The notes: generated from the sequence alone by a model not told the origin. A DNA stretch of 64,000 nucleotides from Candidatus Delongbacteria bacterium (GCA_963663545.1 OY760505.1:448001-512000), one strand, 5' to 3'. Positions 7,627-57,544 are shown, numbered from the stretch's first letter. Numbers and translations are program-made.

Positions 7627-9165
7627 TCAGACCGCGGTAGCTACAGCCTTCGTTTCACGTATCACGACAACCTTGATTGAGCCAGGAAACTCCATCTCCT
7701 GGCTTATCTTCTGAGCAATATCGCTGGACAGCACGTCAGCCATGCTGTCGCTGATTTTCTCTGATTCGGCAACGATGCGGATTTCGCGGCCAGCATAAAG
7801 GGCGTAAACACGATGCACGCCGGGAAAAGCCTCGGCGATGGATTCCAGCTTCTCCACGCGCTTGGTGTAGCTGTCCACACTGTCGCGGCGGCTGCCGGGA
7901 CGTGCCGAGCTGATGATGTCGGCGGCGGTGACAAGTTCGCTGATGGGATCGATGGGCGGCGCTTCGTTGTGATGCGCCATCACCGAGTTAATGACGATGG
8001 GGTGCTCGCGCACGCGCTTCGTGACTTCGACACCAATGGCCACATGGCTGCGCTCGCTGCCGTTGCTCTCGGCCTTGCCAACGTCGTGCAGCAAACCCGC
8101 GCGCTTGGCCAGCATGACATCCAGGCCCAACTCGGCGGCCATGGCTCCCGCAATGCTCGCCACTTCGCGGCTGTGATCCAGCACGTTCTGACCGTAACTG
8201 GTACGATAGCGCAAGCGGCCCAGCATACGCTTCAGATCAGGATGCACGTTCAGTTTGAGCTCGCGCAGCACCTTGCCCGCAGCCTCGTTCATCACACCAT
8301 CTACCTGGCGCGTGGCCTTGGCAACTGCCTCCTGAATGGTCTTGGGTGAGAAGTTGCGGCTCTTGATCAGGGCTTCCAGCGCAATGCGCGCAATTTCGCG
8401 TCTGACGGGATCGAAGCAGCTGAGCACGATGGTGTCCGGCGTTTCGTCCACGATCATTTTGGCGCCGGTGATTTGCTCAAAGCTCTTGATGTTACGGCCT
8501 TCGCGACCGATGATCATGCCCTTGATGCGATTGTTGGGGATCTCCACCTCTTTGATGGTGGCTTCGCCAGCCGTATCGGCCGCCTGCTTCTCGATGGCGG
8601 TGATGATGATCTCGCGTGCTTCTCGGGAGGCGGTTTCGCGTGCGCGGTTCTTGATTTCCGCGACCTGCTCGGCGGCTTCCTGCTCAAAACGCTCGGTGGC
8701 GATTTCCAGCACCTCGCGGCGCGCCTCATCCATGGTCAGCCCGGCGATGCTGGTCAGGCGATCCACCTGTTCATCGATGCGCTGTTTCAGCTCAATCTTG
8801 AGCTGCTCCTGCTCCTCTTCGCGATGGTCAAGCTCCTTCAGGCGCAGCTTGGTTTCCATCTCCAGATCGTGCGCGGCCTTAGCCTGTGCGCGAATTTCGG
8901 TCTCGCGACCGCGAATTTGCTGTTCGCGCTGCTGAAGCTTCTTCTCACGACGACGCAGGTCCTCCTTGCGGCGATTCTCCTTCTGCGCCCACTCCTCGCG
9001 GGCACTGATCAGAGCTTGCTTGCGGATGGTGTCTGCCTCGCGCTTGGCGTGAGTCAGAATATCTTCAGCTGCACTGCGCTGGCGGCGATTGTAGGCCACA
9101 ACAACAGCGGCGCTCAATCCAGCTCCAACCAGCAGTCCCAGCAGCAATGTCAACCCGTAATACAT
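7627..9165 (-). CDS. rny: Ribonuclease Y
   Basis: N-terminal TM, coiled coil, KH domain (KGMIIGREGRNIK), HD domain (GLLHDVGK), ISSARPGSR. Confidence 0.97.
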   Translation of the reverse strand: MYYGLTLLLGLLVGAGLSAAVVVAYNRRQRSAAEDILTHAKREADTIRKQALISAREEWAQKENRRKEDLRRREKKLQQREQQIRGRETEIRAQAKAAHDLEMETKLRLKELDHREEEQEQLKIELKQRIDEQVDRLTSIAGLTMDEARREVLEIATERFEQEAAEQVAEIKNRARETASREAREIIITAIEKQAADTAGEATIKEVEIPNNRIKGMIIGREGRNIKSFEQITGAKMIVDETPDTIVLSCFDPVRREIARIALEALIKSRNFSPKTIQEAVAKATRQVDGVMNEAAGKVLRELKLNVHPDLKRMLGRLRYRTSYGQNVLDHSREVASIAGAMAAELGLDVMLAKRAGLLHDVGKAESNGSERSHVAIGVEVTKRVREHPIVINSVMAHHNEAPPIDPISELVTAADIISSARPGSRRDSVDSYTKRVEKLESIAEAFPGVHRVYALYAGREIRIVAESEKISDSMADVLSSDIAQKISQEMEFPGSIKVVVIRETKAVATAV

Positions 9166-9274
9166 CAGTTCTCCGTATATGTACGTTTCCTTCTGGGGAA
9201 GCAAACAAGAGTACTAAATGGTACGCTGATTTCGGAGCACAAAGTGTTATCGACCGAGGAATCTGAAGCTGGGA

Positions 9275-10153
9275 TCAGAGACGGCACGCTCGCCGCAACC
9301 GACGAGTGAAGCGGTCCGAAAGGTCCTGAAGACTGAATCGAGGCGGATGATAATCACTTCCATCGTCGCGAACGCCGTGATAATCGCTGCCTGCGGTCCA
9401 GATCAGTTTATTACGCCTTGCAAGCTCCATCAGCAGCTTGCTTTGTCCGCCCTTGTGCCCGGGATGCCGCGCCTCCAGGCCGTCCACACCGCAATGCAAA
9501 GCTGGCAGAAACTCACTGTCCGGCAGGCTTTTGCCCGGATGGGCCAGCACCACCAGGCCGTCCTGGGCGTGAGCGATGCGCACCACTTCAGCGGCCGCGG
9601 GTAATTCCTTAGCGACGCCAGCAGGCTTATCGTTGGCCAAATAACGATGAAATGCCTGTGCAAAGTTATTGACAACTCCCAGCCTGAGCAGCTCGGCGGC
9701 CAGATGCGGGCGACCGGCGCTTCCCGTGGCCAGCAGCTCACTGAAACGGGCACGCTCCACCTCAACCCCCTCGGCGTACAGACACTCAAGCATGCGGTCG
9801 AAGCGACGCACGCGCTCTTGACGGATGGCGCTCAGCAGCCTATCGAAATCGCCTTCGCCTGCAGGAATGCCGTAGACGAGCAAGTGGACCTCGGCCCCCT
9901 CCGCCGAAAACACAGGCAGTTGATTGGAGGAAGCCCGCTTCTCTACCGGACGCAGCCGAGCCGAGACCTCGACGCCTGGCAAAGCGTACATGCCGCATGC
10001 GTGAGCGGCCCGGCAGAATTCCTCGCTGCCCGCCTGAGTATCATGGTCGGTGAGTGCAGCACCAAGAATGCCGCGAGCGTGCAAGAGCTCCACCAGTCGA
10101 GTTGGACTGTGGCGACCATCGCTGCAGGTAGAATGCAGGTGCAGATCGATCAC
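9275..10153 (-). CDS. PHP domain phosphoesterase (TrpH/YciV-like)
   Basis: DLHLHSTCSDG, ALTDHDT, LAHP, GSDYHG. Confidence 0.93.
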   Translation of the reverse strand: MIDLHLHSTCSDGRHSPTRLVELLHARGILGAALTDHDTQAGSEEFCRAAHACGMYALPGVEVSARLRPVEKRASSNQLPVFSAEGAEVHLLVYGIPAGEGDFDRLLSAIRQERVRRFDRMLECLYAEGVEVERARFSELLATGSAGRPHLAAELLRLGVVNNFAQAFHRYLANDKPAGVAKELPAAAEVVRIAHAQDGLVVLAHPGKSLPDSEFLPALHCGVDGLEARHPGHKGGQSKLLMELARRNKLIWTAGSDYHGVRDDGSDYHPPRFSLQDLSDRFTRRLRRACRL

Positions 10154-11193
10154 CGGCAGATGTCCAGCATGCGCGTCAGGGCGCTGCGAGCGCCTGCGGC
10201 GTCGGCGTCGGCGACTTCCACCAGGTTGCGCTGGCCCAGATCCTCAAGCACTTCCAACAGAGCAAGGGGCGTACTCATGCTCATGGTGTTACAGATCGAG
10301 CTTCTGCCCAGCAGGCGGATTTCGCGATCTGGCAACTCGGCATTCAACCGTGCCACCAGCTTCTCTTCGGTGCCCACGTAGATCACGCTTCCTTCAGGCG
10401 CGCGGCGGCAATAATCGATGATGTAGCTGGTGCTGCCGGCATCGTCACAAAGCGCAACGATCTCGCGGGGACATTCGGGATGTACAATGACAAGCGCCTT
10501 GGGCTCGGCAGCACGAGCCTCGCGCACCATGTCTTCCGTGAAGTAGGTGTGCACGCAGCAATGGCCTTGCCACAGGATGATTCTGGCGCTCTGGATCTGC
10601 TCCGGCGTCACTCCTCCCAGAGGCCGGAAAGGATCGTAGACCACCACTTCCTCACCGCTGATGCCGCGCTTGAAGGCCGTGTTGCGCCCAAGATGCTGAT
10701 CGGGCGCAAAGAGGACGCGCTCGCCGCGACTGAATGCCCAGTCCAGCACACGCTCCGCGTTGGAGCTCGTACAGACAGCGCCCCCGTGCGTGCCGCAGAA
10801 GGCCTTGGTGCCCACATCGGAATTCACGTAGGTTACCGGTGTCACGGCGTTCATGTCACCCAGCACGTCGCCCAGCGCGGACCAGGCTCGCTCGATGGCC
10901 GGGCGATCGGCCATGTCCGCCATCGGGCAGCCCGCTTCCGGCACGGGATGAATGACCAGCTGATCCTCACGGGCGAGCACACGGGCGCTTTCGGCCATGA
11001 AGCGCACACCGCAAAAAACGATGTAGCGCGCTTTGCTGGCGGCGGCCTCGCGGGCGAGTTGAAAACTGTCGCCGCGCAAATCGGCGTATTGTATCACATC
11101 GTCACTCTGATAATGGTGACCCAGAATCAGGAGCTCTTCGCCGTACTGCAGTTTGAGTTCAGCGATGCGGGTGTGAATCTGTTGGCTTCTCAT
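10150..11193 (-). CDS. nadA: Quinolinate synthase
   Basis: ILGHHYQ, FCGVRFMAE, AGCPMADM, CTSSNA, VHPEC. Confidence 0.96.
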   Translation of the reverse strand: MRSQQIHTRIAELKLQYGEELLILGHHYQSDDVIQYADLRGDSFQLAREAAASKARYIVFCGVRFMAESARVLAREDQLVIHPVPEAGCPMADMADRPAIERAWSALGDVLGDMNAVTPVTYVNSDVGTKAFCGTHGGAVCTSSNAERVLDWAFSRGERVLFAPDQHLGRNTAFKRGISGEEVVVYDPFRPLGGVTPEQIQSARIILWQGHCCVHTYFTEDMVREARAAEPKALVIVHPECPREIVALCDDAGSTSYIIDYCRRAPEGSVIYVGTEEKLVARLNAELPDREIRLLGRSSICNTMSMSTPLALLEVLEDLGQRNLVEVADADAAGARSALTRMLDICR

Positions 11194-11230
11194 GCCGCTT
11201 TCCAAGTACATGCAGGGTTCTAAAAACCCC

Positions 11231-11252
11231 GCGGGGTCCAAGCGGACCCCGC
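11231..11252 (-). terminator. Probable intrinsic terminator after pepA
   Basis: GCGGGGTCC-aagc-GGACCCCGC hairpin with TTTTT nearby on the minus strand. Confidence 0.55.
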
Positions 11253-11285
11253 AGGCAACTGTTTCTCGTTTGCGAACCGGAAGAA

Positions 11286-12797
11286 CTACTCGGCGAAGTT
11301 GGCCGCAAAGTTCTCCAGCAGGTCGTAGACCATGTGCACACCAACGCCGGTGGCACCGGTCACATAACCGGACTTCTTGGGAACCCAGGCGGTTCCGGCG
11401 ATGTCAACGTGCGCCCAGGGGGTTTCCTCGCTGACGGCCTCGTTCAGGAAGGCGCCCGCGGTGATAGTACCCGCCTGACGGTCATTGGTGCTGTTGCAAA
11501 TGTCGGCGATACGCGACTTGATCATGTCGCGATATTCCTCGCTCATGGGCAAGGGCCAACAGGTATCACCAGAGCTGGCACCCGCCTCGACAACGGCTTC
11601 CACCATGCCCGGATCGTTGCCCACCACGGCACTCATCACATGCCCCAGGGCAATCAGCACCGCACCGGTCAGCGTGGCGAAATCCATCATGGCATCGGGC
11701 TTGTAGGTGCGCTCGGCGTAGGTCAGCGCGTCGCACAGCAGCAGACGGCCTTCGGCATCGGTATTGATGATTTCCACTTTCTTGCCGCACAGCAGCTCAA
11801 TAATGTCACCGGGCTTGTAGCTGGTGCCATCGGGCAGGTTTTCGGCAGCCGGAATCACGCCAAAGACATCCACATCGGGCTGGATCTCGTTGATCACCGA
11901 AAAGACGCCGAGCACGGCGGCGGCGCCGCACATATCGTACTTCATGTCTTCCATCTTGGCGCCCGGCTTCAAGCTGATACCGCCGGAATCGAAGGTGATG
12001 CCCTTGCCGATGACCGCAAGCTTGCGCGCATTGCGCTTGCCGCAACGGTACTCGAGAGCAATCAGCTTGCTTTCTTGTGCGCTGCCCTGCCCCACGGCCA
12101 GAATGCCGCCGGCGCCCATCTTCTTGAGCTGGGCCTCGCCCATCACCTTGACCTTGATCTTGCTAGTCTTGCCGCTGGCAAAGGAGAGCGCCGTCTTGGC
12201 CAGATACTCGGGAGTGGCGGTGTTGCCGGGATGGGTGCCCAGATCGCGGGCTACGTTCACACCGCGGCCAATGGTGTCACCGCGCTTGAGAGCTGCGACG
12301 AGCTCCTTGGCGGGTTTCTCGCCGGCGCGAACAACGATGGTCTTCAGCGAGCTGGTCTTCGGCTTGCTGCGATAGTGTTCAAACTCCCAGTTGCCAGTGC
12401 GCAGGCTGCGGGCCATGGTCACGGCTACGGAGACGGCCTCGGGGCCCTGCTCATCCAGCTCAGGCATTTCGATTGCAACAGCCTTGTAGTGCTGGTTCTT
12501 CAGCCAGATACTTAAGCCACCGAAGGCGGTGGTTACGGTCTTGAGTGCAAAACGCTCGCGATCGCCCAGACCAAGCAGCAGCAAACGCTGAATGCCAGCC
12601 TTGGAATCGTTGGGATACAGCATGAAGCGCTCAGAAGTCTTGCCACAGAAATCGCCAGCCTTTAGTACGCGGGCGACGTCGAAATACTGGTCCAGACCCG
12701 CCAACTCGGCCGGAAGGCCTTCGCCTTTGTACAAACACACTACATAGAGTTCTGTCTTCAGCTTGTTCAGCGCGTCTTTTTTAATGACCAGTTCCAT
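11286..12797 (-). CDS. pepA: Leucyl aminopeptidase (M17)
   Basis: GKGITFDSGG, MKYDMCG, NTDAEGRL, ATLTGA. Confidence 0.96.
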   Translation of the reverse strand: MELVIKKDALNKLKTELYVVCLYKGEGLPAELAGLDQYFDVARVLKAGDFCGKTSERFMLYPNDSKAGIQRLLLLGLGDRERFALKTVTTAFGGLSIWLKNQHYKAVAIEMPELDEQGPEAVSVAVTMARSLRTGNWEFEHYRSKPKTSSLKTIVVRAGEKPAKELVAALKRGDTIGRGVNVARDLGTHPGNTATPEYLAKTALSFASGKTSKIKVKVMGEAQLKKMGAGGILAVGQGSAQESKLIALEYRCGKRNARKLAVIGKGITFDSGGISLKPGAKMEDMKYDMCGAAAVLGVFSVINEIQPDVDVFGVIPAAENLPDGTSYKPGDIIELLCGKKVEIINTDAEGRLLLCDALTYAERTYKPDAMMDFATLTGAVLIALGHVMSAVVGNDPGMVEAVVEAGASSGDTCWPLPMSEEYRDMIKSRIADICNSTNDRQAGTITAGAFLNEAVSEETPWAHVDIAGTAWVPKKSGYVTGATGVGVHMVYDLLENFAANFAE

Positions 12798-13686
12798 GCT
12801 CGTCCTCACTTGTTTCTATTTGTATTGGAATCTCTCTTACTACGCCGCCAAAACCGATCAGCCTGTCGACGACATGAGAAATGAGCACCTCCGGGGTGGA
12901 CGCACCGGCGGAGACACCTACTGTGGCCAAGCCCTGCAATTCTTCTTCGCGCAGTGCATCGGCATTTTCAATCAAGCGCGCATCGGCTCCGCAATCGCGG
13001 GCGATGTCACACAGACGGTTGGCATTTGCGCTCGACGTGGACCCGACCACAAAAATGACCTGGCAGCAGCGCGCCAGCTCTCGAATGGCGCGTTGACGGC
13101 GAGCGGTCGCATCGCAAATGGTGTCGAAGACCTGAAGCTGCGGAAACCGCGTTTTCAAACGATCTACCATTGTAGCGAATTGCGCTCTGTCCTGGGTGGT
13201 CTGCGAGAGCAATGCGACGTCCTCCCACTCGGCGGGAAGGGTGTCAACCTGATCAGGGCTATGTATCACGAGGACCTGGTCTGGCGCCTGACCAACGATT
13301 CCGGTGACTTCACTGTGGCCTTCATCTCCCAGCAAAATCACGTGTTTGCCCTGTTCGGCAAGCTGGCGCACAATACGATGAATGCGTGTTACAAGCGGGC
13401 AGGTCGCATCCAGCACGTGCAGGCCGCGGGCGCGTGCTGTTCGTACGACTTCAGGTGATACACCGTGTGCGCTAACCACCATGCGCCCGGAGGGAATCTC
13501 GTCCAGCGCTTCAACGCAGCGAATACTCTTTTGCTCCAGCTCGCGTATCACGTGCTTATTATGCACGATTTCGTGCAACACACAGATCTCGCCTTCAGGG
13601 TCCTCTTCACGCGCTTGATATACCAGTGAAATGGCGCGCTCAACACCAAAACAGAATCCCATTTCTCTGGCAAGCAGGATTTCCAT
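12781..13686 (-). CDS. ispH: 4-hydroxy-3-methylbut-2-enyl diphosphate reductase
   Basis: GFCFGVERA, DATCPLV, TICDAT, SAGASTP. Confidence 0.96.
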   Translation of the reverse strand: MEILLAREMGFCFGVERAISLVYQAREEDPEGEICVLHEIVHNKHVIRELEQKSIRCVEALDEIPSGRMVVSAHGVSPEVVRTARARGLHVLDATCPLVTRIHRIVRQLAEQGKHVILLGDEGHSEVTGIVGQAPDQVLVIHSPDQVDTLPAEWEDVALLSQTTQDRAQFATMVDRLKTRFPQLQVFDTICDATARRQRAIRELARCCQVIFVVGSTSSANANRLCDIARDCGADARLIENADALREEELQGLATVGVSAGASTPEVLISHVVDRLIGFGGVVREIPIQIETSEDEHGTGH

Positions 13687-15569
13687 CAGTTCTCCAGCAA
13701 GGCAAGCACGCGCTCGGCGATGCGCTGTCCGGTCAGACCAACCTGATCAAGCAACAGCCGACGCCCGCCGTGTTCCACCCACTGATCGGGCAGACTCATG
13801 TGATACAAGCCTCTGGTACGGCCCAGGCAGGCAAGCTCACCGCGCAGGGCCTCGCCAAATCCACCTCGCGGACAGTTTTCCTCGACCGTGATCAGCGGTA
13901 GCGGACAAGCGGCGAGTTCAGCCAGTATCTGTTGATCCATAGGTTTGATAAAACGGCAGTTGATGACTTCCGCCTCGACCTTGTGCTCGGCCAGCAGCTC
14001 GGCGGCATCCAGACATTCACGTACCATCGATCCAACCGCAAGGAATCGCAGGCGATTGCCTACTCGCAAGCGCTTCCAGCTGCCCAGCGCAATGGGCTCC
14101 ACCGGTAGTGCTGGGTCAAAGGCGTAGGAGTTATCCTTGGGGTAGCGGATGCAGAAGGGACCGCTGTGTGATACAGCCAGATGCAACAGGGCGCGAAACT
14201 CGTTGCCATCCGCTGGCGCTGTAACCACCATACCGGGCACCATACCCATGTAGGACAAGTCGAAATTGCCGTGATGCGTCGGGCCATCCGCACCCACCAG
14301 ACCGGCACGGTCCAGCGCAAAAATCACCGGCAGCTTCTGCAAGGCTACATCGTGTATCACATTGTCCACTGCGCGTTGCATGAACGTGGAATAGACGGCG
14401 ACAACCGGAAGCTGCCCGGCCGCAGCAGCGCCCGCGGCGAAGGTGACGGCGTGCCCCTCGGCGATGCCCACATCCACAACTCGCTCAGGATGCGCGGCCG
14501 CCAGCGGCGCCAGCCCCGTCCCTTCGGCCATGGCAGCGGTAATGGCAAAGAGCCCCTCATGCTTGGGCAACAATTCTTCCAGAATCACGGGTAGCAGATT
14601 GTTGTAACTGGGCGCTTTGGGCTGCTCGGTTTCCAGCATATCCTGCGGTGCTGTCTCCCGCAGGTTGCCGCCAATGCCGTGATACTTCACGGGATTGCGC
14701 TCCGCGATGGGCAGCCCCTTGCCCTTCTTGGTGACGACATGCAGCAGGCGCGGACCGCGGATTTTGTGCAGGCGCTCAAGAGTGTGAGTCATGGCGCTCA
14801 GATCGTGGCCGTCGATCGGACCGAAATACCGATAGCCAAGTTCGTTGAAGAAAATGCCCGGCAGCACCAGAGAGCTCAGACTCTCGAACATGCGACGCGC
14901 CAGCTCGCGGCTGCGGTCCTTGTTGCGTCCGCCCAGCTTGCCGGTGGCTTCCCATACTTGGTCGCGCAAGCGATTAACAAAGGGATGCAGGTTGACTTCG
15001 GTAAAGTAGTGTGACAGCGCGCCCACATTGGGACTAATGGACATCTGGTTGTCGTTGAGGATCACGAGCAAATCCAGTCCGCTGGCTCCGCCGTGATTCA
15101 AACCCTCAAAAGCCAGGCCGCCCGTCAGACTGCCATCGCCGATGATGGCAATTGTCTCACGCCGCTCTTTGCGCCGCTTGGCTGCGTAGGCAAAACCTAG
15201 TGCGGCCGAGATGGAAGTGGACGCGTGACCTGCGCCAAAAGCATCGTGCTCCGATTCTTCCCGTTTGAGAAAGCCGGAAAGCCCGCCAAACTGGCGCACG
15301 GTTTCGAACTCGCTCTGGCGCCCCGTCAACAGCTTATGGATATAGCCCTGATGACCGACATCCCAAATCATCTTGTCGCGAGGGCTATCGAACACGCGAT
15401 GCAGGGCAACGGTGAGTTCAACCACACCCAGGCTGGCAGCCAGATGGCCACCGGAGCTAGTGATAACGCGTATCACCTCGTTGCGCAGCTCTCGACAAAG
15501 CTGGGGCAGGTCCTCTTCGGGCAACAGTTTCAGGTCGCCGGGGCCCTGGATCCGTTCCAGCAAACTCAT
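13686..15569 (-). CDS. dxs: 1-deoxy-D-xylulose-5-phosphate synthase
   Basis: GGHLAASLG, WDVGHQ, GDGSLTGG, LNDN, DRAGLVGADGPTH. Confidence 0.97.
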   Translation of the reverse strand: MSLLERIQGPGDLKLLPEEDLPQLCRELRNEVIRVITSSGGHLAASLGVVELTVALHRVFDSPRDKMIWDVGHQGYIHKLLTGRQSEFETVRQFGGLSGFLKREESEHDAFGAGHASTSISAALGFAYAAKRRKERRETIAIIGDGSLTGGLAFEGLNHGGASGLDLLVILNDNQMSISPNVGALSHYFTEVNLHPFVNRLRDQVWEATGKLGGRNKDRSRELARRMFESLSSLVLPGIFFNELGYRYFGPIDGHDLSAMTHTLERLHKIRGPRLLHVVTKKGKGLPIAERNPVKYHGIGGNLRETAPQDMLETEQPKAPSYNNLLPVILEELLPKHEGLFAITAAMAEGTGLAPLAAAHPERVVDVGIAEGHAVTFAAGAAAAGQLPVVAVYSTFMQRAVDNVIHDVALQKLPVIFALDRAGLVGADGPTHHGNFDLSYMGMVPGMVVTAPADGNEFRALLHLAVSHSGPFCIRYPKDNSYAFDPALPVEPIALGSWKRLRVGNRLRFLAVGSMVRECLDAAELLAEHKVEAEVINCRFIKPMDQQILAELAACPLPLITVEENCPRGGFGEALRGELACLGRTRGLYHMSLPDQWVEHGGRRLLLDQVGLTGQRIAERVLALLEN

Positions 15570-47036: not shown

Positions 47037-47089
47037 TTAGATATCTCCTTTGTTTTCAGCGTGATAACCCAAAGGCGGGTAAACCTATC

Positions 47090-47152: not shown

Positions 47153-47154
47153 GC

Positions 47155-48699: not shown

Positions 48700-48833
48700 T
48701 CGAACTTGGGGCTTAAAGCACCTGACAGCAGCTCGCTACTCTTCTCATTCGAAGCTCAGGTTTGATCTGCTCACGAGGAGTGAATTGATGTGTCACGTAC
48801 TGCTGATCCAATTGCTGAAAATGTGTCCGCTCA

Positions 48834-49277
48834 CTAGACTCCGCTTCGAAGAGTATCAGCCCTCATCGTGGCCAGCGACCCGACCACCAGATCGACTCCA
48901 GGGCAAGTTTGAGAACGCTCCGGAATCCATGTATCTCCACTGCGCGGCGCAGGAAGCACTTCACGTGTTACACCGCTATGGGACCCGGCCGCCCCGAAGC
49001 CAAGCACAACACCAAGCAGTAGCGTCGCCACCATGCCTGCAACCCGGCGCGGCAACCTGGTGCGCATGCTGGTTCGCGCTCGCGGGAGTACGGGTACAGC
49101 CAAGGGGGGCAACCCCAGACCGAAATCTGCGATCCCGGCCACTTCCTGCTGAACCTGTGTAACACGGGTGGCACATGTCTCACAGCGCTCAAGGTGGGCG
49201 TGACACGCTTCCCCTTCGGCTTCGCTTAGCGTATCCAGGCAGAAGGCCAGAATTTGATCTTCGCTCAGATGTTCCAT
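48834..49277 (-). CDS. Zinc-finger (HxxxCxxC) anti-sigma factor
   Basis: HLERCETC followed by one TM helix; overlaps the end of the ECF sigma gene. Confidence 0.88.
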   Translation of the reverse strand: MEHLSEDQILAFCLDTLSEAEGEACHAHLERCETCATRVTQVQQEVAGIADFGLGLPPLAVPVLPRARTSMRTRLPRRVAGMVATLLLGVVLGFGAAGSHSGVTREVLPAPRSGDTWIPERSQTCPGVDLVVGSLATMRADTLRSGV

Positions 49278-49816
49278 GGATGCAGTCCTTCTTTTCGCAA
49301 GCGCTCGCGTATGCTTTGAACGGCGTGATACAGACGGGACTTGACGGTTCCCGGAGGAATGGATAGCTGCTCCGCCGTTTCTTCAACGGATAGGCCAGCG
49401 ACAAGCCGCAGCACGATCACTTGTCGTTGGGGCTCTGGCAGCTGCTCCAGGGCCCTTCCCAGATGGTGATCGCGCTCACGGGTCAGCAAGCGCTGATCGC
49501 TTTGCTGACTTCCCGCTGGCTCAGGAAGCGGCTCCCAGTCACAGACGCGCCGATGTCGCTGGCTCTCCTTGATCGCCAATCGCCAGGCGGCTGTTGCCAG
49601 ATAGCCGCGCAGACTTTCCGTGACACACGGCGGATCACGGCGCAGAAGCCTTAGGAAACACTCCTGTGCTACATCCGCCGCCAGATCCCGTGATCCAAGA
49701 ACGGCGAAGGCGGTGCGCTGCAGCGCATCGCCATGCCGGGCTACCAGGGTGGCCCAAGCCTTCTGCTCACCCCGGCGTGCCGCGGCAAGCAAATCCCGGT
49801 CGCTCAGGGCTTCCAT
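49265..49816 (-). CDS. ECF sigma-70 factor
   Basis: ADVAQECF (region 2); LSVEETAEQLSIPPGTVKSRL (region 4). Confidence 0.94.
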   Translation of the reverse strand: MEALSDRDLLAAARRGEQKAWATLVARHGDALQRTAFAVLGSRDLAADVAQECFLRLLRRDPPCVTESLRGYLATAAWRLAIKESQRHRRVCDWEPLPEPAGSQQSDQRLLTRERDHHLGRALEQLPEPQRQVIVLRLVAGLSVEETAEQLSIPPGTVKSRLYHAVQSIRERLRKEGLHPWNI

Positions 49817-51021
49817 CCCTGCTCCTTGAGCCAGATATCAACTTCCGGCAGATCAGCTCCCCGTCCAAAGGCAGCGGCCAGTTGCTGCTGCACGGGAACC
49901 GGAAACTGTGGTGCCAGATGCCGGGTGAACCAATAAAAGAGCGCGCGTCTGGTATCTAAGGAAGGAACCCGCTGAGGATCAGTGGCTGTGGCCAAAGCAC
50001 TCAAGTAATTGCGCAGCATCAGGCGGTCGGCGTTCGTCGCGGACTGGTAGCGCAGGCTGTAACTGTCCATGCCCGCCGTGCGCCACTGACTGATCCAGCA
50101 GGCCGGATCAAAAATGGACTTGTGCTCTCCCGTCTGTACCAGCGTCGCCAGGCCTAGGCTTTCCCCCCGCTCCATTAGCGACTCAAGCCCGGAAGTGGGT
50201 GCAAGCGTACTGGCAAAACACACAGGACGGCCCTGAAGCTGAGCTTCCTGCAGCACGCGCTCCATCAACACTTCGCTCAAGGGCCGCGTAAGCTTCGTCT
50301 GAAGCTGCTCCAGCTCAGAAGCCGTGATACACAGGGGCAAGCCCTGGCGGATCATGTAGAGCGGGTACCAGTTCGTGTTCATCAGACTCTGGTTGATCAC
50401 CGTCAGATCCGGGCGCACATCCAGCACACGCTGCAGAATCCAGCAGGGATAAGTGTCATTGTCACCATTGGTCAGCAGCACACTACCCAGCGGCAGACAG
50501 GCCAGCATGTTGTAGCCGTAATCGAGGATCACATCGGAAATCGCACCCATGCTCAGTAGATCGGACAGCGCTTGATCGGTAGCAGCGTCATCCCCCTGCT
50601 GCATGTACATCACGCTTAGCATGAAGAGAGGATCGTCGTAGGCAGGATCCAAACGGTGCGCCAACTCCAGGTATTCCAGCGCCTGCGCCCGTGTATCACT
50701 CTGATACCGCACCGCCAGCTCAAGCCCCTGCAGATAAAGCAGCGTCGGATTGGCCGGGTACTTGCGCAGCGCTTTGGCCAGCTCCTTCTCGTACTTTTCG
50801 TCCTGGGCGTAGCGCATGGCGTAGAGTCGGTTGGCAGCCGCGTACTCAGAGGGCTGCTCGCGGTAATAATTCTGCCATTGCTGAGCCAGCTCCTGGTAGG
50901 CGCCTGGCTCCAGGCATTCACGACGCTTGCTCAGCACCTCGCGCGGTCGCAGCAGCGCATCGGCGGCCACCGCCACTCCGGCGCTGATGAGCAGAAGCAG
51001 CAAAACGGTTTTCTTCCACAT
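49804..51021 (-). CDS. Secreted TPR-like protein with GDNDTYP motif
   Basis: Signal peptide MWKKTVLLLLLISAG; helical repeats; LLTNGDNDTYPCW. Confidence 0.8.
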   Translation of the reverse strand: MWKKTVLLLLLISAGVAVAADALLRPREVLSKRRECLEPGAYQELAQQWQNYYREQPSEYAAANRLYAMRYAQDEKYEKELAKALRKYPANPTLLYLQGLELAVRYQSDTRAQALEYLELAHRLDPAYDDPLFMLSVMYMQQGDDAATDQALSDLLSMGAISDVILDYGYNMLACLPLGSVLLTNGDNDTYPCWILQRVLDVRPDLTVINQSLMNTNWYPLYMIRQGLPLCITASELEQLQTKLTRPLSEVLMERVLQEAQLQGRPVCFASTLAPTSGLESLMERGESLGLATLVQTGEHKSIFDPACWISQWRTAGMDSYSLRYQSATNADRLMLRNYLSALATATDPQRVPSLDTRRALFYWFTRHLAPQFPVPVQQQLAAAFGRGADLPEVDIWLKEQGWKP

Positions 51022-51184
51022 GGCATCACTCCTGATTAGGCACGGGTCACTCCGTACTACACAGAGAATCCGCGAGGAGGGCAAAGGTTCAGCGGCGCAC
51101 GAAAAAACATCTGTGTTGCGTGGGACAAAGTAACACGAGCAAAGAAAAGGGCGACCCAAGGGCCGCCCGTGTGACACATCATGA

Positions 51185-52810
51185 TCAGGCCAACTGCCTT
51201 CGCAGCATGAAATCCAGCAATAGCATGCGCAGGAAGGTGACAGCGAAAAAGCCCATCAGTACCGCGGCGATCCAGTCGACGCCCATCACGAAACCCGCAA
51301 AGAGGCAGACGCCCACCATGGCGAAGGGGGTGAGGATATCAACCAGCTTCTTGCCCCCCGCCAGCGGCTGCCAGCGCTCCGGTCCCGTGTACATCTCTTC
51401 GGAATCGGCGGTGGCCAGTGTCTCACGCCGGTCGGGAAGCTTGTGTGACGCAACAAAGCTCAGCAGGTAGGCGACGGATCCCGCCAGAATGAGCATGCTG
51501 ATGCTAAGGTTGTCACCCGGAACTCCCGGCACGCCGAAAAGGCCCTCCTGAAGACTTGCGATCCAGCCGTAATTCAAACCGTGCTCGTAAAGCCAGGCGC
51601 CACTGCTGTAGCTGAAGGAATAGGCCAGGTTGCTGATGGACATGAAGCCCGCAAACAGACTGCCAGCAGCAGCGACCGGAATCACAGCGCCCACCAGACT
51701 GAAGGTACTCATGCGAATGATGCTGATGGCAACGGCCAGCAGCATGTTGTAGGACGCCATGAAGCCCAGGCGAACCGTATCGAGCTCGAGGAAGGGCAGC
51801 ATTTTTGCCAGGCCGTTCGTGATACGCGTGAACCAGGGATCCACCAGCGCGTACTGGCTCAGGTTGATCAGCACGCTGATCAGGATGAAAATCTTGAAGA
51901 GGTTGCGCAGACCGAAGCGATCCTGCCAGCGAATTCCTACGCCGGCAAACAGCAGCACGCCTACGAAAAAGCCAATGTAGCTGGCGCCATCGGAGAGACC
52001 GATCTGCGTCTGCGTAAAGTGCAGATCTTCGATCATGTAGTTCGTCCAGAGCGCGCCCATGGCCGGTTGGAAGTGGAACACGAAGTAGAAGAGCATCACC
52101 CAGAGAATCGGCCCCGTGTGCAGACCATGCCAGAAGCCCAGCACCGATTGCTTGATGGGAATCGGCACCGCTTTGTCCTTGGGCAGACGTAACACAAAGA
52201 GCAGCACCAGAATGGGCACGATGGCCAAGACCGGTAGCAGGTTTTTGACTTCCATGTTGTCGGCGATCCAGCCACCGGAGACCGCCGCGAGGATGCTGGT
52301 GCCGTAGATGGCCGCCCAGCAGATGGCCTGATTCAGGCCGACGGTGGTTGACTTGCTGCGACCGGTTTCCTGCGCTTCTTCTTCGCCGGAGATCACCGTG
52401 GCACGGTCGACGGCTACATCGGTGGCGGCCAGAATGATGCTCAGGGTGAACATCATGCCGAAGAAGACCATGGCGCTTGTATCGACAAAGGGCGTCAGAA
52501 AGTAGAAGACCAGAGCCATGGAGAGCAGCGCCGTCAGCGCGACCTTGGTTTTGCCGTAGGCGTCCATGAAGAAGCCCAGGATGGGCTTGAAACTCCAGGC
52601 CAGGTAGGACTTGCTGAAGAAGGCCTGGGTCTGTGCCTCCGTCAGGCCGTAATCAACGCGGAAGTGCTTGAAGAAGGGCTGGTAGGTGACTCCCTGAAAA
52701 GGGTTCGAGAGGCCCTGTAACACGTACTCGAGGCCAAAGACCCACTTCAGTGCACGGCGTCCGCGCAATTCCTCTTCACGACTGATCTGAACGTCCTGTT
52801 CCTGGCTCAT
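51185..52810 (-). CDS. MFS transporter, BT1/folate-biopterin-like
   Basis: AWSFKPILGFFMD, AATDVAVD; multiple TM; AGGAGG RBS before ATG 52810. Confidence 0.8.
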   Translation of the reverse strand: MSQEQDVQISREEELRGRRALKWVFGLEYVLQGLSNPFQGVTYQPFFKHFRVDYGLTEAQTQAFFSKSYLAWSFKPILGFFMDAYGKTKVALTALLSMALVFYFLTPFVDTSAMVFFGMMFTLSIILAATDVAVDRATVISGEEEAQETGRSKSTTVGLNQAICWAAIYGTSILAAVSGGWIADNMEVKNLLPVLAIVPILVLLFVLRLPKDKAVPIPIKQSVLGFWHGLHTGPILWVMLFYFVFHFQPAMGALWTNYMIEDLHFTQTQIGLSDGASYIGFFVGVLLFAGVGIRWQDRFGLRNLFKIFILISVLINLSQYALVDPWFTRITNGLAKMLPFLELDTVRLGFMASYNMLLAVAISIIRMSTFSLVGAVIPVAAAGSLFAGFMSISNLAYSFSYSSGAWLYEHGLNYGWIASLQEGLFGVPGVPGDNLSISMLILAGSVAYLLSFVASHKLPDRRETLATADSEEMYTGPERWQPLAGGKKLVDILTPFAMVGVCLFAGFVMGVDWIAAVLMGFFAVTFLRMLLLDFMLRRQLA

Positions 52811-52911
52811 GCATCCTCCTATTTGGAAGGCGCAAAAATGGGAAAGGCGCGCCGTACTCCAAAGGTCGGTCGCGCCTTGAAATGTCGCATTCACTGCATT
52901 ACGCGGTTGTA

Positions 52912-54729
52912 TTACGCGCTTTCGGGCTTGGCGCTCTTGCGCATGGCGCGGCGGCGGTCCAACTCGTCCAGCAGGTTCTTGCGCAGTCGCAGGAAATTGG
53001 GGGTCACCTCAAGGTACTCGTCGGCGGCCAGGAACTCCAGGTTCTCCTCCAGGCTGAAGATCACCGGTGGCGCGATGCGCAGGCTGCGATCCGAACCGGA
53101 GGCGCGCATGTTGGTCAGCTTCTTCGACTTGAGCACGTTGACCACCAGATCGTTGTCGCGCGTGTACTCGCCGATCACCTGGCCCATGTAGACCTGGTCT
53201 CCGGGTTTCACGAAGAAGCGACCGCGATCCTGCAGGCCGTCCAGCGCGTAACCCACGGCTTCGCCCGTGGCCATGGCGATGATCGAACCGGACAGGCGTC
53301 CGGGGATGCTGCCCTTGAAGTACTCGTACTGATGGAAACGGTGATACAATACGATCTCGCCGCCGGTGGCCTTGAGCATGCGGCTGCGGAAGCCGATCAG
53401 GCCGCGACTGGGCATGTAGAATTCCATGCGCGTTCGCGAGTCGCCTTGCTCCATGTTGATCATCTCTCCGCGACGCTGGGCCACGGTTTCAATGACCACA
53501 CCGGCGTGTTCGCTGGCCACGTCGACGCTCAAAATCTCGACGGGTTCGGCCTTGCGTCCGTTGATCTCCTTGTAGATCACGCGCGGCTGCCCCACCATGA
53601 ACTCGTAGCCTTCGCGACGCATGGTTTCCATCAGAATGGAGAGATGCAGAATGCCACGTCCCGAGACCTTGAAGGTATCGGCACTGCTGGTTTCCTCGAC
53701 GCGCAGGGCAATGTCGCGCTCTGTCTCACGGAAGAGGCGCTCACGCACTTGTCGGCTGGTGACGTAGCGGCCATCCTTACCGTAGAAGGGACTGTCGTTG
53801 ATCATGAAATACATGGAGAGCGTGGGCTCGTCCATGGCGATCAGCGGCAGTGGTTCGGCGTGTTCCACGTCGGCAATTGTATCACCAATGTCGACACCCT
53901 CAAGCCCGATGATGGCGCAGATCTCGCCGCAGCCGACCTTCTCGATCTCGCAGCGGCCCAGGTTATCAAAGTAGAAGAGCTTGCGCACCTGCTGTTCCTG
54001 TCGGCTGCCATCTCGTTTCAGTACAGAGATGCGCTGTCCCTGCGCCAGCTCGCCGCGGAAAACACGGCCAATGGCAATGCGGCCCACGTACTCGCTGTAA
54101 TCCAGGGCGGTAACCAGCATCTGCAGCGGTCCGGCGTTGAAGCGCGGGGCGGGAATGTGCTCCACAATGGCATCCAGTAGCGGCGCCAGATCAACGCGCT
54201 CGTCGTCGATTTCACGCGCTGCCCAGCCAGCTCGCGCTGAGCTGTAGATCACCGGAAACTCAAGTTGCGCATCGTCGGCACCCAGCTCCATGAAGAGCTC
54301 AAAGACCTCGTCGTGCACCTCCTCCGGTCGCGCGTTTTCGCGATCCATTTTGTTGATCACGACAATGGGCTTCAGGTGTAGCTGCAGCGCCTTCTGTAAC
54401 ACAAAACGCGTCTGCGGCATGGGACCTTCAAATGCGTCGACGAGCAACAGCACGCCGTCGGCCATCTTCAGCACACGCTCCACTTCACCACCGAAATCGG
54501 CGTGCCCGGGAGTATCAATGATGTTGATGCGTGTGTCACCCCAGACCACGGCCAGGTTCTTCGAAGTAATGGTGATACCGCGCTCGCGTTCCAGATCGTT
54601 GCTGTCCATGAAGCGCTCGCGCACTTCCTGTCCTTCGCGGAACACCTTGCAGCTACCGAGGATCTTGTCGACGAGAGTGGTTTTGCCGTGGTCGACGTGG
54701 GCAATGATGGCGACGTTGCGGAGATTCAT
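52912..54729 (-). CDS. typA: Translational GTPase TypA/BipA
   Basis: [42 protein letters not shown]. Confidence 0.98.
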
Positions 54730-54909
54730 CGGGACTTTCCTTGAGAAAAAAGCGAGGAAGGTAGGAAATGCAAAGCTGACTGACACGGTTTGCCGCAAAA
54801 CAGTTTTGGCGGACTCCGCCGGTCCACTAACCAAGGATTGTGTATGGCTGGAATGCGGCCATGCGCTGCAGTAGCGTTCGCCTGTTGATACCGATAGCGA
54901 TTAGGGAGG

Positions 54910-55725
54910 CTACTTCAGGACCAACTCCACCGGGCAATGGTCGCTGCCGGTGATTTGGTCGAGGATGTCGGCCTTCTGCAAACGCGGCTCCAGATCGCGC
55001 GAGGCAAAGAAATAGTCCAGGCGCCAGCCGACGTTCTTGGCGCGCGCGCCACCGCGATTGGACCACCAGGAATAGCGATCAGCTGCATCAGGGTGAAGAT
55101 GACGAAAGCTGTCGATCATGCCCGTGGTGTGTGTGCCGGATAGAAAGCGATCGATCCAGGCGCACTCTTCCGGCAAAAAGCCGCTGTTCTTGCGGTTGGC
55201 CGCGGGGCGCGCAAGGTCGATCTCGCGATGGCTGGTGTTCAGGTCGCCGCAGACGACGACGCTCTCGCCACGTGTGACAAGGTCCTCCACCAAACGTTGG
55301 AAGGCCTCGTAGAAGTTCATCTTGTAGTGCAGCCGCTCTTCACCGGAAGTGCCGTTGGGAAAGTAGATATTGAACAGCAGAAAGCTGCTCTTGCCAAGGG
55401 CATGGCGACTCACGGTGACACGGCCTTCGTTATCCCACTCAGCCAGGGCAGCGTCCAAGGCGGCAAAACCGCTGTGAATCTCCATGGGCGGCGTGAGACA
55501 AAGCGTGGCCGTTCCGCTGTAGCCGGGACGCTCTGCGGGGTTTAGATGGAAGCTGTAGCCCAGCTCCGCCAACTCCTCCAGAAAGCCCTTGGGCAGCTGC
55601 TCTTCGCGCACACGGGTTTCCTGCAGGCAAAGCACATCGGGCCTCTCGGCTTTCAGCTTCACCATGAAATCCTTGCCCAAAACGGAGCGCAGTCCGTTCA
55701 CATTCCACGAAAGCAGGCGTATCAC
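54910..55725 (-). CDS. xth: Exodeoxyribonuclease III
   Basis: SWNVNGLR, LQET, GDLN, GWRLDYF, SDHCP; GTG start at 55725. Confidence 0.95.
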   Translation of the reverse strand: MIRLLSWNVNGLRSVLGKDFMVKLKAERPDVLCLQETRVREEQLPKGFLEELAELGYSFHLNPAERPGYSGTATLCLTPPMEIHSGFAALDAALAEWDNEGRVTVSRHALGKSSFLLFNIYFPNGTSGEERLHYKMNFYEAFQRLVEDLVTRGESVVVCGDLNTSHREIDLARPAANRKNSGFLPEECAWIDRFLSGTHTTGMIDSFRHLHPDAADRYSWWSNRGGARAKNVGWRLDYFFASRDLEPRLQKADILDQITGSDHCPVELVLK

Positions 55726-55726
55726 A

Positions 55727-57544
55727 TCAAATCCTTTCCGGTGTGGGAATGCCCATGATGTCCAGGCCCTGGCGAATGGCGGTGCCGACAGCGTCCACCA
55801 GCGCAATACGCTGCTGCGCCAACTCGGGGTCGTCCACGCGATCAAAGACGCTGTGGGCGTTGAAGAAGCGCGAGAAAGCGCGCGCCAGCTCGTAGGTGCG
55901 GGTAGCCACACGCGAAGGGTTGAACTGCGCCGCCGCCTGCTGTACTTCCAGTGGCCAGAAGGCCAGCTGCTTCAGCAACTCCACTTCCTCTTCGTTGCCC
56001 AGCTTGTCGAATTGTGTCACAGCGGCAGCATCTACTCCGCTCTTGCGAATCAGACTGCGAATACGCGCCTGGGCGTACTGCAGATAGGGGCCGGTATTTC
56101 CCTGCAGGTCGATGGACTCCTTGGGATCGTAGAGCATGTCCAGCTTGGGATTCACCTTGAGCACGAAGTACTTCAGCGCGCCCAGCGCCAAGGCGTGGAC
56201 CACTTCTTCCTGCTCTTCCACAGGCATATCCAGACGACGTTCGCCCTGCTGCATCACCTCGCGACAGGCATCCTTCAGCTCCTGCAGCAGATCGTCGGCA
56301 TCCACTACGCGGCCCTCGCGACTCTTCATCTTGCCGGTGGTCAAGTTGACCATGCCGTAGCTGAAGTGCAGCAGCCGGTCAGCCCAGTCGTAGCCCAGCT
56401 TTTGTAACACGTGAAAGAGCACGCGAAAGTGGTGTTCCTGCTCGTTGCCGACGACGTAGATCATGCGCTGAAAGTCCAGCTCGCGCTGACGTGCTACAGC
56501 GGTGCCGATGTCCTGCGTCATGTAGAGACTGGTACCGTCGCTGCGCAACAACACCTTGGGTTGCAGCTTGAGTTCTTCCAGAGAGCAAACCACAGCGCCC
56601 GTGTCATTGCGCTCAAGCGAACCCTTATCCAGGCCTGCTTCAATGATATCCCGGCCCAGCAAGTAGGTGTTGCTTTCGTAATACACGCGATCGAAGTGCA
56701 CGCCAAGTTCGCTGTAGGTCTGCTCAAAACCATCGAACACCCAACTATTCATCCTTTCCCAGAGCTGGCGTACGGCTGTATCACCGGCCTCCCAGTCACG
56801 CAGCATTTGCCGCACGGCCGACAGCAACTCGCTCTTCTCGCCAAACTCCTGCTCCAGCGCATCCTGCTCGTCGCGCGGGAGAACTTTCGGGTCCACACCC
56901 TTGGCCGTGTACCAAGCGTCCTGTTCGGCTTTCAGCTTTTGGGCAAAGAGCACGTAAAAACGGCCCACCAGGTGGTCGCCCTTCTCGCCGGAGCTTTCGG
57001 GTGTAACGCCCTCGCCCCAGCGCTGCCAGGCCAACATGCTGCGGCAGATGTGCACACCACGATCGTTGATCAGATTCACGCGTGTTACATCGTGCCCCGC
57101 CACCGACAGTAGATTGGCCAGGCCCTCGCCCAGGATGTTGTTGCGCACATGGCCCAGGTGCTGGGGCTTGTTGGTGTTGGGACAAGAATACTCCACCACC
57201 ACACGCTCGCGCTCGGCGTCCGGCAGCTGCGGCAGCCCCTCGCGCTGAGCGAGGATCACATCGCTGAACCAGCGGGTCACATCCACCTTGAGGTTGAGGT
57301 AGGGGCCAGCGGCGTTCACCTCTGTCAGTGGCGCTTTGCCTTCGAGCCGCGCAGCCAGCTCCTGGGCGATCTGCTGGGGCGCGCGTCGGCAGGCTTTGGC
57401 CAGCGGAAAACAAGCAAAGGCCAGATGTCCCATGGCAGCGTCGGGCGGCAGTTCGACAGAAAGGCTGCGCGGGTCCAACTCAACATTAAAAGCGTCCTGG
57501 ACACTGTTGCTGATCAGTTTGAGTACTTGTGATACAAGGCTCAT
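55727..57544 (-). CDS. argS: Arginine--tRNA ligase
   Basis: VEYSCPNTNKPQHLGH, KMKSREG, GNTGPYLQYA, IPTPERI. Confidence 0.97.
   Translation of the reverse strand: MSLVSQVLKLISNSVQDAFNVELDPRSLSVELPPDAAMGHLAFACFPLAKACRRAPQQIAQELAARLEGKAPLTEVNAAGPYLNLKVDVTRWFSDVILAQREGLPQLPDAERERVVVEYSCPNTNKPQHLGHVRNNILGEGLANLLSVAGHDVTRVNLINDRGVHICRSMLAWQRWGEGVTPESSGEKGDHLVGRFYVLFAQKLKAEQDAWYTAKGVDPKVLPRDEQDALEQEFGEKSELLSAVRQMLRDWEAGDTAVRQLWERMNSWVFDGFEQTYSELGVHFDRVYYESNTYLLGRDIIEAGLDKGSLERNDTGAVVCSLEELKLQPKVLLRSDGTSLYMTQDIGTAVARQRELDFQRMIYVVGNEQEHHFRVLFHVLQKLGYDWADRLLHFSYGMVNLTTGKMKSREGRVVDADDLLQELKDACREVMQQGERRLDMPVEEQEEVVHALALGALKYFVLKVNPKLDMLYDPKESIDLQGNTGPYLQYAQARIRSLIRKSGVDAAAVTQFDKLGNEEEVELLKQLAFWPLEVQQAAAQFNPSRVATRTYELARAFSRFFNAHSVFDRVDDPELAQQRIALVDAVGTAIRQGLDIMGIPTPERI

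Follow-up and report, generated by a model that had tools for sequence, protein, structure and literature searches.

The 8-mer GTGATACA (reverse complement TGTATCAC) is a lineage-specific DNA word, held at about 1 copy per 1.2 kb in the genome of a Candidatus Delongbacteria bacterium, and the process that maintains it imposes the rare codons ATA, TTA, GTA, TCA and ACA on genes. The stretch in which the word was noticed, here called the window, is 64,000 nucleotides long and comprises bases 448,001-512,000 of a single 3,721,866-bp contig (GCA_963663545.1 OY760505.1; genome G000), with a GC content of 58.3%. An earlier note, made from this sequence alone, had described a 7-mer, GTGWTAC, which brings rare AT-ending codons into housekeeping genes, and had attributed it to a force acting on DNA rather than on protein. 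Both strands of the window together hold 115 copies of GTGWTAC (87 GTGATAC and 28 GTGTTAC), of which 101 lie within called genes and 14 are intergenic. The motif is real, but the 8-mer GTGATACA, together with graded variants, describes it better (GTGWTACA for the corresponding 8-mer pair). A ranking of k-mers in the window gave 62 copies of the core 8-mer where base composition predicts 1.2, followed by GTGACACA (29 copies) and GTGTTACA (22 copies). Gene coordinates are those of a crude caller based on open reading frames (ORFs) and codon scores, not of a curated annotation; it returned 2677 genes and 89% coding sequence in G000. Gene names were assigned by NCBIfam profiles with curated cut-offs.

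The excess is far beyond chance and withstands two kinds of shuffling. GTGWTACA occurs 84 times in the window, against 1.95 +/- 1.57 (largest 7) in 100 dinucleotide-preserving shuffles. When the codons of the 44 complete window genes were shuffled synonymously 300 times, GTGWTAC fell from 99 to 17.1 +/- 3.9 copies (max 28) and GTGATACA from 56 to 4.9 +/- 2.0 (max 13). Throughout the 3.72-Mb genome GTGATACA is the most frequent 8-mer, with 3149 copies compared with 80.6 expected by composition (39x), a mean spacing of 1182 bp (about 1 per 1.18 kb) and an even split between the forward (1599) and reverse (1550) strands. The same letters read backwards, used as a control word, occur only 36 times (0.45x). 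A search of the open literature, with subscription journals outside it, found no paper naming GTGATACA or TGTATCAC, and a search for uptake sequences and over-representation together with Bacteroidetes gave, among the matches listed, only Neisseria, Haemophilus or unrelated topics. The name Delongbacteria appears in 21 papers, though in no title or abstract of those listed.

As the earlier note had read from the window, the genes of G000 mostly use G- or C-ending codons (GC content at third codon positions, GC3, 0.66), and the codons supplied by the word are scarce, with shares among synonymous codons of 7% for ATA (Ile), 2% for TTA (Leu), 12% for GTA (Val) and 8% for TCA (Ser). We compared their use inside and outside the peptides that the word can encode, as had been suggested. 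Isoleucine in V-I-[QH] (n = 749) is written as ATA in 74.2% of cases, against 5.9% for the other 50,164 Ile codons, and leucine in V-L-[QH] (n = 686) is written as TTA in 33.7%, against 2.2% in other contexts. Equal use elsewhere, which would have spoken against the proposal, was thus not observed; outside the peptides that fit the motif the two codons are 13-15 times scarcer. The motif spells V-I-[QH] in 535 of its 749 occurrences where 23 are expected, and x-V-S-[RQPHL] is written ..T GTA TCA C.. in 631 of 2000 where 4.3 are expected. The window alone gives the same picture, with ATA in 18 of 25 Ile codons within V-I-[QHRP] vs 34 of 819 elsewhere (Fisher p = 2.5e-18) and TTA in 12 of 29 Leu codons within V-L-[QHRP] vs 28 of 2100 elsewhere (p = 1.3e-14); 18 of the 52 ATA codons and 11 of the 40 TTA codons in the window lie inside a motif copy. 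Motif density varies with the codon typicality of the gene. The three least typical quintiles carry 1.0-1.24 copies per kb, the next 0.71 and the most typical 0.44, which amounts to a damping of the force by about 2.3-2.8-fold in the most codon-biased genes. Since density falls toward codon-typical genes, selection on codons or proteins pushes back.

The motif had also been noticed in other reading frames, and genome-wide all five stop-free frames are occupied, as GTG ATA CAn (543 copies), nGT GAT ACA (1010), TGT ATC ACn (171), nTG TAT CAC (462) and nnT GTA TCA Cnn (627); the sixth frame would hold TGA. Altogether 2813 copies lie in genes, 289 are intergenic and 47 cross a gene border, which corresponds to about 0.85 per kb of coding and 0.72 per kb of intergenic sequence. 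The five frames combined contribute 2804 in-frame copies where the actual proteins and codon usage predict about 193. With both strands, coding and intergenic DNA and five frames involved, it is a sequence-specific process reading DNA, and not protein or RNA, that maintains the word against codon and protein preferences, as the earlier note had argued.

Little else is attached to the word. Between -25 and +32 the flanks carry at most 0.03 bit at every position outside it except -1 (0.18 bit, "not A") and +8 (0.08 bit, a mild preference for A). Because there is almost no flank information, the word is not the core of a longer repeat, and the conserved sequence or structure beyond a core that would mark a repetitive extragenic palindrome (REP) or a miniature inverted-repeat transposable element (MITE) is not seen in these flanks. 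The placement of the word relative to replication was assessed with an origin and a terminus inferred from the cumulative GC skew (minimum near 1.94 Mb, maximum near 0.12 Mb). Copies on the leading strand number 1753 of 3149 (55.7%), vs 52.8% expected from gene orientation, and 76.5% of the coding bases of G000 lie on the leading strand. When the chromosome is divided into 248-kb bins, those at the inferred origin hold about 1.5x as many copies (244-278 each) as those at the terminus (159-184 each).

The one-mismatch variants of GTGATACA in G000 form a profile that resembles the recognition profile of a protein, with positions 1, 2 and 7 strict and positions 3, 4, 5, 6 and 8 tolerating particular bases. 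Changes at the strict positions (G, T and C) occur at 0.4-1.0x expectation, near the 0.45x of the backwards control. The tolerated variants are 3A (5.1x), 4T (8.6x), 4C (3.5x), 5C (10.8x), 6C (6.7x) and 8G (10.4x). Enrichment is seen for the transversion 4T but not for the transition 4G (0.8x), and therefore the variants are not simple mutational decay of the consensus. The same profile was obtained from a sample of the related genome G002, whereas in that of G009 the variants are near background.

Proteins are affected as well as codons. In the G000 proteome the tripeptides that the word can encode are 1.6-5.3x commoner than the same residues in reversed order: V-I-[QH] 749 vs 232, [RGSC]-D-T 1866 vs 620, C-I-T 195 vs 37, [LVM]-Y-H 511 vs 149 and V-S-[RQPHL] 2004 vs 1283. 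The earlier note had proposed a comparison with orthologs from motif-free relatives. We took orthologs as the best tblastn match with at least 35% identity and at least 60% coverage, from samples of the relatives rather than their whole genomes. Compatible tripeptides proved to be about 1.6x commoner in G000 than in the orthologs of two motif-poor relatives (164 vs 101 in G001 and 121 vs 73 in G006), with the reversed controls flat (72 vs 71 and 55 vs 62), and against the motif-rich G002 the counts were 381 vs 339 (controls 152 vs 153). The process thus makes the peptides which the word can encode more frequent. Codons that overlap the word show less amino-acid identity than the average of the alignments in each relative (0.418 vs 0.549 in G002, 0.420 vs 0.501 in G009, 0.446 vs 0.577 in G001 and 0.410 vs 0.583 in G006), which would mean either that the word settles at unconstrained residues or that it changes them. 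The force does more than choose among synonymous codons: at aligned motif sites the peptide of the relative differs in 194 of 243 cases (G002), 88 of 105 (G009), 76 of 93 (G001) and 65 of 70 (G006). Where a compatible peptide is retained, the motif spells it in 31 of 41 cases in G002, in 3 of 10 in G009, 0 of 14 in G001 and 0 of 4 in G006.

The comparison set consists of 12 species-level genomes of the phylum, from two families; they are related and thus not independent. At least 7 of the 12, from both families, are enriched in the word. After G000, copy numbers of GTGATACA are 2460 in G002, 1030 in G010, 1004 in G009, 809 in G004, 524 in G011 (67% complete), 408 in G003, 137 in G001, 131 in G005, 99 in G008, 45 in G006 and 29 in G007. 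Samples of 162-400 kb were taken from five relatives (G001, G002, G003, G006 and G009), and over-representation reached 47x in the G002 sample and 13x in that of G009. The codon anomaly is confined to the word-rich genomes among these five. ATA accounts for 69% of Ile in V-I-[QH] vs 3% elsewhere in G002, 79% vs 19% in G009, 10% vs 3% in G003, 3% vs 2% in G001 and 0% vs 1% in G006, and V-S-[RQPHL] is written GTA TCA in 123 of 242, 45 of 170, 13 of 145, 0 of 83 and 0 of 52 cases, respectively.

Two of the relatives favor a variant. The 6C form GTGATCCA exceeds GTGATACA in G003 (1380 vs 408) and G001 (984 vs 137), and it is the top 8-mer by ratio (15.7x) in the 356-kb sample of G003. A merely codon-driven origin of GTGATCCA was considered for G001, where 55 of the 68 coding copies in the sample fall in two frames of common codons. 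A hand estimate from amino-acid and codon frequencies places those two frames several-fold above expectation, and this excess, together with the top ratio in G003, disfavors such an origin. Therefore we believe that GTGATCCA is probably a dialect of the word in the clade of G001 and G003. A single-gene tree of TypA, rooted at the midpoint, groups G000 with G002 (support 81/85) and G001 with G003 (83/100) and places G009 on a very long branch. The GC contents, as sampled, are 0.507 in G009, 0.567 in G000, 0.582 in G002, 0.635 in G001, 0.642 in G003 and 0.674 in G006. The simplest reading would be that an ancestral GTGATACA was kept at moderate GC, shifted to C at a tolerant position in a clade of higher GC and disappeared from the genus with the highest GC. 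Two other words were observed alongside. The palindrome GTATAC is enriched 4.4x in the G003 sample (166 copies; extended forms CGTATACA 12.9x and ATGTATAC 15.3x) and stands at 0.3x in G000; it may be a second word, specific to G003 and similar to the highly iterated palindromes (HIPs) of cyanobacteria. Words containing GATC are moderately enriched in the whole of G000 and in the samples of G001, G002, G003 and G006 (GATC 1.5-2.4x, TGATCA 2.3-4.8x, GTGATC up to 4.1x).

The largest gap between copies of GTGATACA in G000 spans 118,740 bp (3,567,311-3,686,051) and has a GC content of 0.502, vs 0.567 genome-wide. Besides three IS200-like transposases and some domains related to phages, it encodes Rnf subunits, a phosphoenolpyruvate-utilising enzyme, the exonuclease VII large subunit, phosphatidylserine decarboxylase, a CCA-adding/poly(A) polymerase-type enzyme and MoxR ATPases, among others. 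Elsewhere in G000 there is a paralog for 25 of the 66 proteins that reach about 150 aa, and several are diverged second copies (xseA with 37%, the CCA-type enzyme with 38% and adenosine deaminase with 59% identity). On this evidence the stretch could have come from another lineage in one large acquisition, or else the assembly could be chimeric here. A prophage was considered and set aside, as Pfam gives mostly metabolic or housekeeping-type genes, diverged duplicates and IS200-like transposases with repeat arrays. Repeat arrays (consensus GATGCCTGGCACCATT) border the three IS200-like (Y1_Tnp) transposase genes at about 3.631-3.636 Mb and about 3.683 Mb, in what looks like an arrangement of REPs and a REP-associated tyrosine transposase (RAYT). 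The 8-mer CTGGCACC was rejected as a second dispersed word, its copies being clustered in such REP-like arrays beside transposases; 62 of its 338 copies in G000 lie inside the 118.7-kb stretch, most of them within arrays.

Hyper-abundant self words are known from very few lineages, as the uptake signal sequences (USS) of Pasteurellaceae, the DNA uptake sequences (DUS) of Neisseriaceae and HIP1, and their origin is debated between uptake drive, repair bias and selection. The likeness to uptake sequences and HIP1 that the earlier note had drawn is apt as an analogy, short of a demonstrated membership of either class. The word shares with USS (9-bp core AAGTGCGGT) its non-palindromic form, a density of about 1 per kb on both strands, a mostly genic location and the use of several frames. 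The USS of Haemophilus has a few critical bases and others of weaker effect (Mell et al. 2012, PMC3458573), and USS and DUS are described as about doubling the frequency of the tripeptides that they encode, as lying at poorly conserved residues and as being absent from genes without homologs in relatives (Findlay & Redfield 2009, PMC2817400). Critical and weaker bases, tripeptide inflation and poorly conserved residues are likewise features of GTGATACA. It differs in being an 8-bp word with almost no flank signal, whereas USS has T-rich flanks, and in its heavy use of rare-codon frames (GTA TCA 627, GTG ATA 543), whereas USS frames correlate with preferred codons (PMC2817400). It also belongs to another phylum and is known from genomes alone. 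With DUS, for which ComP is the receptor, the word has in common its hyper-abundance as a self word, a strict core, a type IV pilus with minor pilin-like proteins and clade variants, the shift from GTGATACA to GTGATCCA in G001 and G003 recalling the DUS dialects that follow phylogeny (PMC3630211). Unlike DUS, it has no inverted-pair or terminator arrangement, and GTGATCCA departs from GTGATACA at a single tolerant base, in genomes of higher GC; for that reason the variant may reflect base-composition pressure and not a changed receptor.

The reading that we favor, tentatively and at somewhat short of an even chance, is that an uptake-signal-like molecular drive maintains the word. GTGATACA would then be a self-DNA signal recognised by the uptake or recombination machinery of a naturally transformable bacterium, a proposal in which we place the same guarded degree of belief. 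Fragments bearing the word would be preferentially taken up and recombined, mutations creating it would spread through the population, and weak codon and protein selection would oppose this drive until the density settles at an equilibrium. Lineages of high GC would either have dropped the word or have moved its tolerant sixth base from A to C. This reading leads because every published sequence hallmark of USS and DUS that could be tested is present: the word is asymmetric, lies on both strands at about 1 copy per kb, is independent of frame, inflates the tripeptides that it encodes, sits at poorly conserved residues, combines a strict core with tolerant positions, varies between clades and is missing from foreign-looking DNA. 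Scarcity in recently acquired DNA corresponds here to the copy-free 118.7-kb stretch, for which an assembly chimera remains the alternative. It is possible, if rather less than probable, that GTGATACA is a genuine and ancient signal for uptake or self-recognition in an uncultured non-proteobacterial phylum, the first outside Pasteurellaceae and Neisseriaceae; its presence in both families of the phylum would speak for such an age.

The transformation machinery that an uptake signal requires can be recognised in G000. A type IV pilus cluster at about 2.7328-2.7495 Mb encodes a prepilin, a PilT-like ATPase, three proteins with a pilin-like N-terminus (2,734,492-2,737,536), PilM, PilO, flanking small proteins, the secretin PilQ, PilB, PilC and the prepilin peptidase PilD, and the genome also carries ComEC, DprA and a small HHH_3 ORF similar to ComEA. 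This set (pilus, retraction ATPase, secretin, ComEA, ComEC and DprA) is necessary for the proposal and not diagnostic of it. The 224-aa pilin-like protein beside PilT (G000:C1:2734975-2735649) is the most diverged of the three, with 30-44% identity across the phylum; in the other family it can be detected over the N-terminal 100 residues alone, and it evolves much faster than its neighbors, among which a 624-aa protein shows 45-54% identity within the same family.

Several points weigh against an uptake signal. To our knowledge, uptake specificity has been shown in two proteobacterial families alone, and the known USS and DUS are 9-12 bp long with flanking signal, whereas GTGATACA is a bare 8-mer like HIP1. 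Adjacent copies at most 60 nt apart (++ 40, -- 38, +- 28, -+ 37) show no excess of inverted pairs such as form neisserial terminators. ComEC was found in 11 of the 12 genomes and DprA, HHH_3 and three pilin-like proteins in all 12, motif-poor genomes included; the secretin and T2SSF are also near-universal in the genomes searched, whatever the motif density, and the competence and pilus profiles match non-specific control genomes too. Because the machinery is found in motif-poor relatives and control genomes, gene content gives no discrimination. The organism is uncultured and the argument is drawn from sequence alone, and repair bias or site-by-site selection would yield all of the supporting patterns.

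The main rival, though somewhat unlikely, holds that the word is of the kind of HIP1 (GCGATCGC), for which a methylation-linked, sequence-specific bias of mismatch repair or a chromosome-level role, independent of uptake, has been proposed. The one-mismatch deviations from GTGATACA are concentrated at particular positions, and it is from such deviations that Elhai reportedly inferred an inner recognised core. Both words are 8 nt long, occur roughly once per gene (1 per 1.18 kb here) and are phylum-wide; the 39x excess falls in the 15-300x range given for HIP1, whose function is still described as unknown (PMC5861425), and alternate HIPs replace HIP1 in some cyanobacterial lineages (PMC4390886) as GTGATCCA stands in for GTGATACA in some genomes here. 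HIP1 has also been linked to transformation efficiency (preprint 10.1101/2024.09.10.611283). The density gradient from origin to terminus and a small N6_N4 methyltransferase, conserved in all five genomes searched, count in the same direction. HIPs, however, are GC-rich palindromes in every described case and are tied to orphan methyltransferases for their inner palindromes, whereas GTGATACA is asymmetric and AT-rich relative to the genome. A search for four Pfam families of DNA methyltransferases in three motif-rich genomes (G000, G002 and G009) and two motif-poor ones (G001 and G006) found none that tracks the word, and the conserved small methyltransferase is itself present in the motif-poor genomes. 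The Vsr endonuclease (PF03852), which very-short-patch (VSP) repair would require in word-carrying genomes, gave no match in the motif-rich G000 and G009 and matched in G002 and the motif-poor G006. The HIP and VSP models rank lower because the word is no palindrome and because, in the families and genomes searched, no matching pattern of Vsr or of a cognate methyltransferase was found. Alternatively, though in our view improbably, an abundant protein of the chromosome (such as a nucleoid-associated protein, a condensin loader or a segregation factor) could bind GTGATACA, with selection for chromosome organisation keeping each copy. The sharp recognition profile and the chromosome-wide spread with its origin-to-terminus gradient would suit such a site, such a role has been argued for HIP1 (Xu et al. 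2018, PMC5861425), and GTGATACA is one base off what we take to be the half-site consensus of parS. The exact parS-like half-site GTGAAACA is nevertheless unenriched in G000 (83 copies, 1.0x), and no DNA-binding protein of bacteria is known to us that has exact 8-bp sites by the thousand. Selection acting on each of about 3000 sites, with enough force to change codons and residues, would be very costly. Between G000 and G002 few of the positions persist (31 of 243 aligned sites), and the 31 are explained by shared compatible peptides.

A Chi-like hotspot of recombination by RecBCD or AddAB, over-represented through the protection or repair of the cell's own DNA, is very unlikely. Chi is likewise a short asymmetric word over-represented in core DNA, and GTGATACA is missing from foreign-looking DNA and slightly in excess on the leading strand. 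Chi sites and octamers of the type of the FtsK-orienting polar sequences (KOPS) are, however, strongly co-oriented with replication, whereas GTGATACA is barely so at 55.7% vs 52.8%, and a 39x excess of an AT-rich, codon-overriding word is far beyond that of any Chi known to us. That the word needs no special force and simply follows from codon usage, motifs in peptides, a mutational bias or a dispersed, mobile repeat of the REP or MITE kind is scarcely credible. Some other frequent 8-mers are indeed codon-driven, as is CAGCAGCA in G001, which lies in a single frame in 124 of its 141 coding copies. For GTGATACA this reading is already contradicted by the results on frames (five, on both strands, with an intergenic density similar to the coding one), codons (rare ones), flanks (uninformative), mismatches (4G 0.8x vs 4T 8.6x, hence no simple mutational decay) and synonymous shuffles (4.9 vs 56 seen in the window).

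Restriction-modification genes of G000, at about 1.118-1.127 Mb, about 1.698-1.702 Mb and about 1.575-1.577 Mb, include a Type III-like pair (a 980-aa Mod and a 1018-aa Res), Type I HsdM and HsdS beside an insertion sequence (IS) integrase, and an Eco57I-like methyltransferase. None of these is common to the genomes in a pattern that tracks the word.

The word is an independent instance of a hyper-abundant self word, in an uncultured phylum, and as an asymmetric AT-rich word in a GC-rich genome it makes its cost visible as rare codons and altered peptides. The present analysis adds an 8-mer definition and a profile of its mismatches, tests of codons and tripeptides over the whole genome set against motif-poor relatives, a measure of how far codon bias damps the force, copy numbers for the 12 genomes with the 6C variant, and negative results for Vsr, methyltransferases and pilins. 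Among the 12 genomes the word is strong in some and weak, shifted (A to C at position 6) or lost in others, a comparative series from which phyletic profiling could seek the gene responsible. In these metagenome-derived genomes the word is a sharp marker of native as opposed to foreign or mis-assembled DNA, and annotators should note that it distorts codon-usage and peptide statistics. If the word is an uptake signal, sequence-specific natural transformation would be old and would have arisen independently in distant bacteria, and such words could flag transformation in the genomes of organisms that have never been grown.

Table 1 Copies of the word and the genes that carry them in the 64,000-nucleotide window (positions counted from its first base).
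Feature	Position	Strand	Sequence or reading	Remarks
Dispersed copies of the word	1..64000	both	62 GTGATACA and 22 GTGTTACA	
Motif in rny (RNase Y)	7659..7665	-	GTG ATA CGT (V-I-R)	rare Ile codon ATA; TIGR03319, 544 bits
Complete 8-mer GTGATACA in dxs	14353..14360	-	GTG ATA CAC (V-I-H)	TIGR00204, 705 bits
Second motif in dxs	15470..15476	-	GTG ATA CGC (V-I-R)	
Gene for a 1903-aa subtilisin-like protein	31004..36715	-	20 GTGWTAC copies in four frames	protease domain matches
Variant GTGTTACA in a membrane transporter-like gene	52716..52723	-	GTG TTA CAG (V-L-Q)	rare Leu codon TTA
Variant GTGTTACA in typA	54395..54402	-	GTG TTA CAG (V-L-Q)	TypA, TIGR01394, 890 bits
Motif at the probable start of xth	55719..55725	-	GTG ATA C, continuing GTG ATA CGC	start inferred
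Variant GTGTTACA in argS	56403..56410	-	GTG TTA CAA (V-L-Q)	TIGR00456, 427 bits

The seven sites quoted in the earlier note (7659, 14354, 15470, 52717, 54396, 55719 and 56404) all lie where it had placed them, in the frames given and on the minus strand (Table 1). Its gene names also hold for rny, dxs, typA, xth and argS, which score above the NCBIfam cut-offs; the gene that it had assigned to the major facilitator superfamily (MFS) has a weak match to the folate/biopterin transporter profile (fbt), with 29 bits vs a cut-off of 216. The note had further placed a motif copy at the probable start of xth. The profile alignment begins at residue 65 of the longest ORF, which a start at codon 63 fits, and the GTG at 55725-55723 sits one base past the argS stop at 55729-55727 on the minus strand. 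A start at this GTG, with the start codon within a motif copy, is therefore plausible.

The gene of the 1903-aa subtilisin-like protein shows the frame independence of the word inside one gene, as the motif is read there as VIQ, GDT, [MV]YH, and V-S-x or x-I-T. A search of metagenome contigs with this lineage-specific protein turned up a single match, of 51% identity, and no close strain. Two large secreted proteins of the window (20692-22719 and 59707-62157) carry C-terminal sorting domains of the type IX secretion system (T9SS), consistent with a cell envelope of the FCB (Fibrobacteres-Chlorobi-Bacteroidetes) type.

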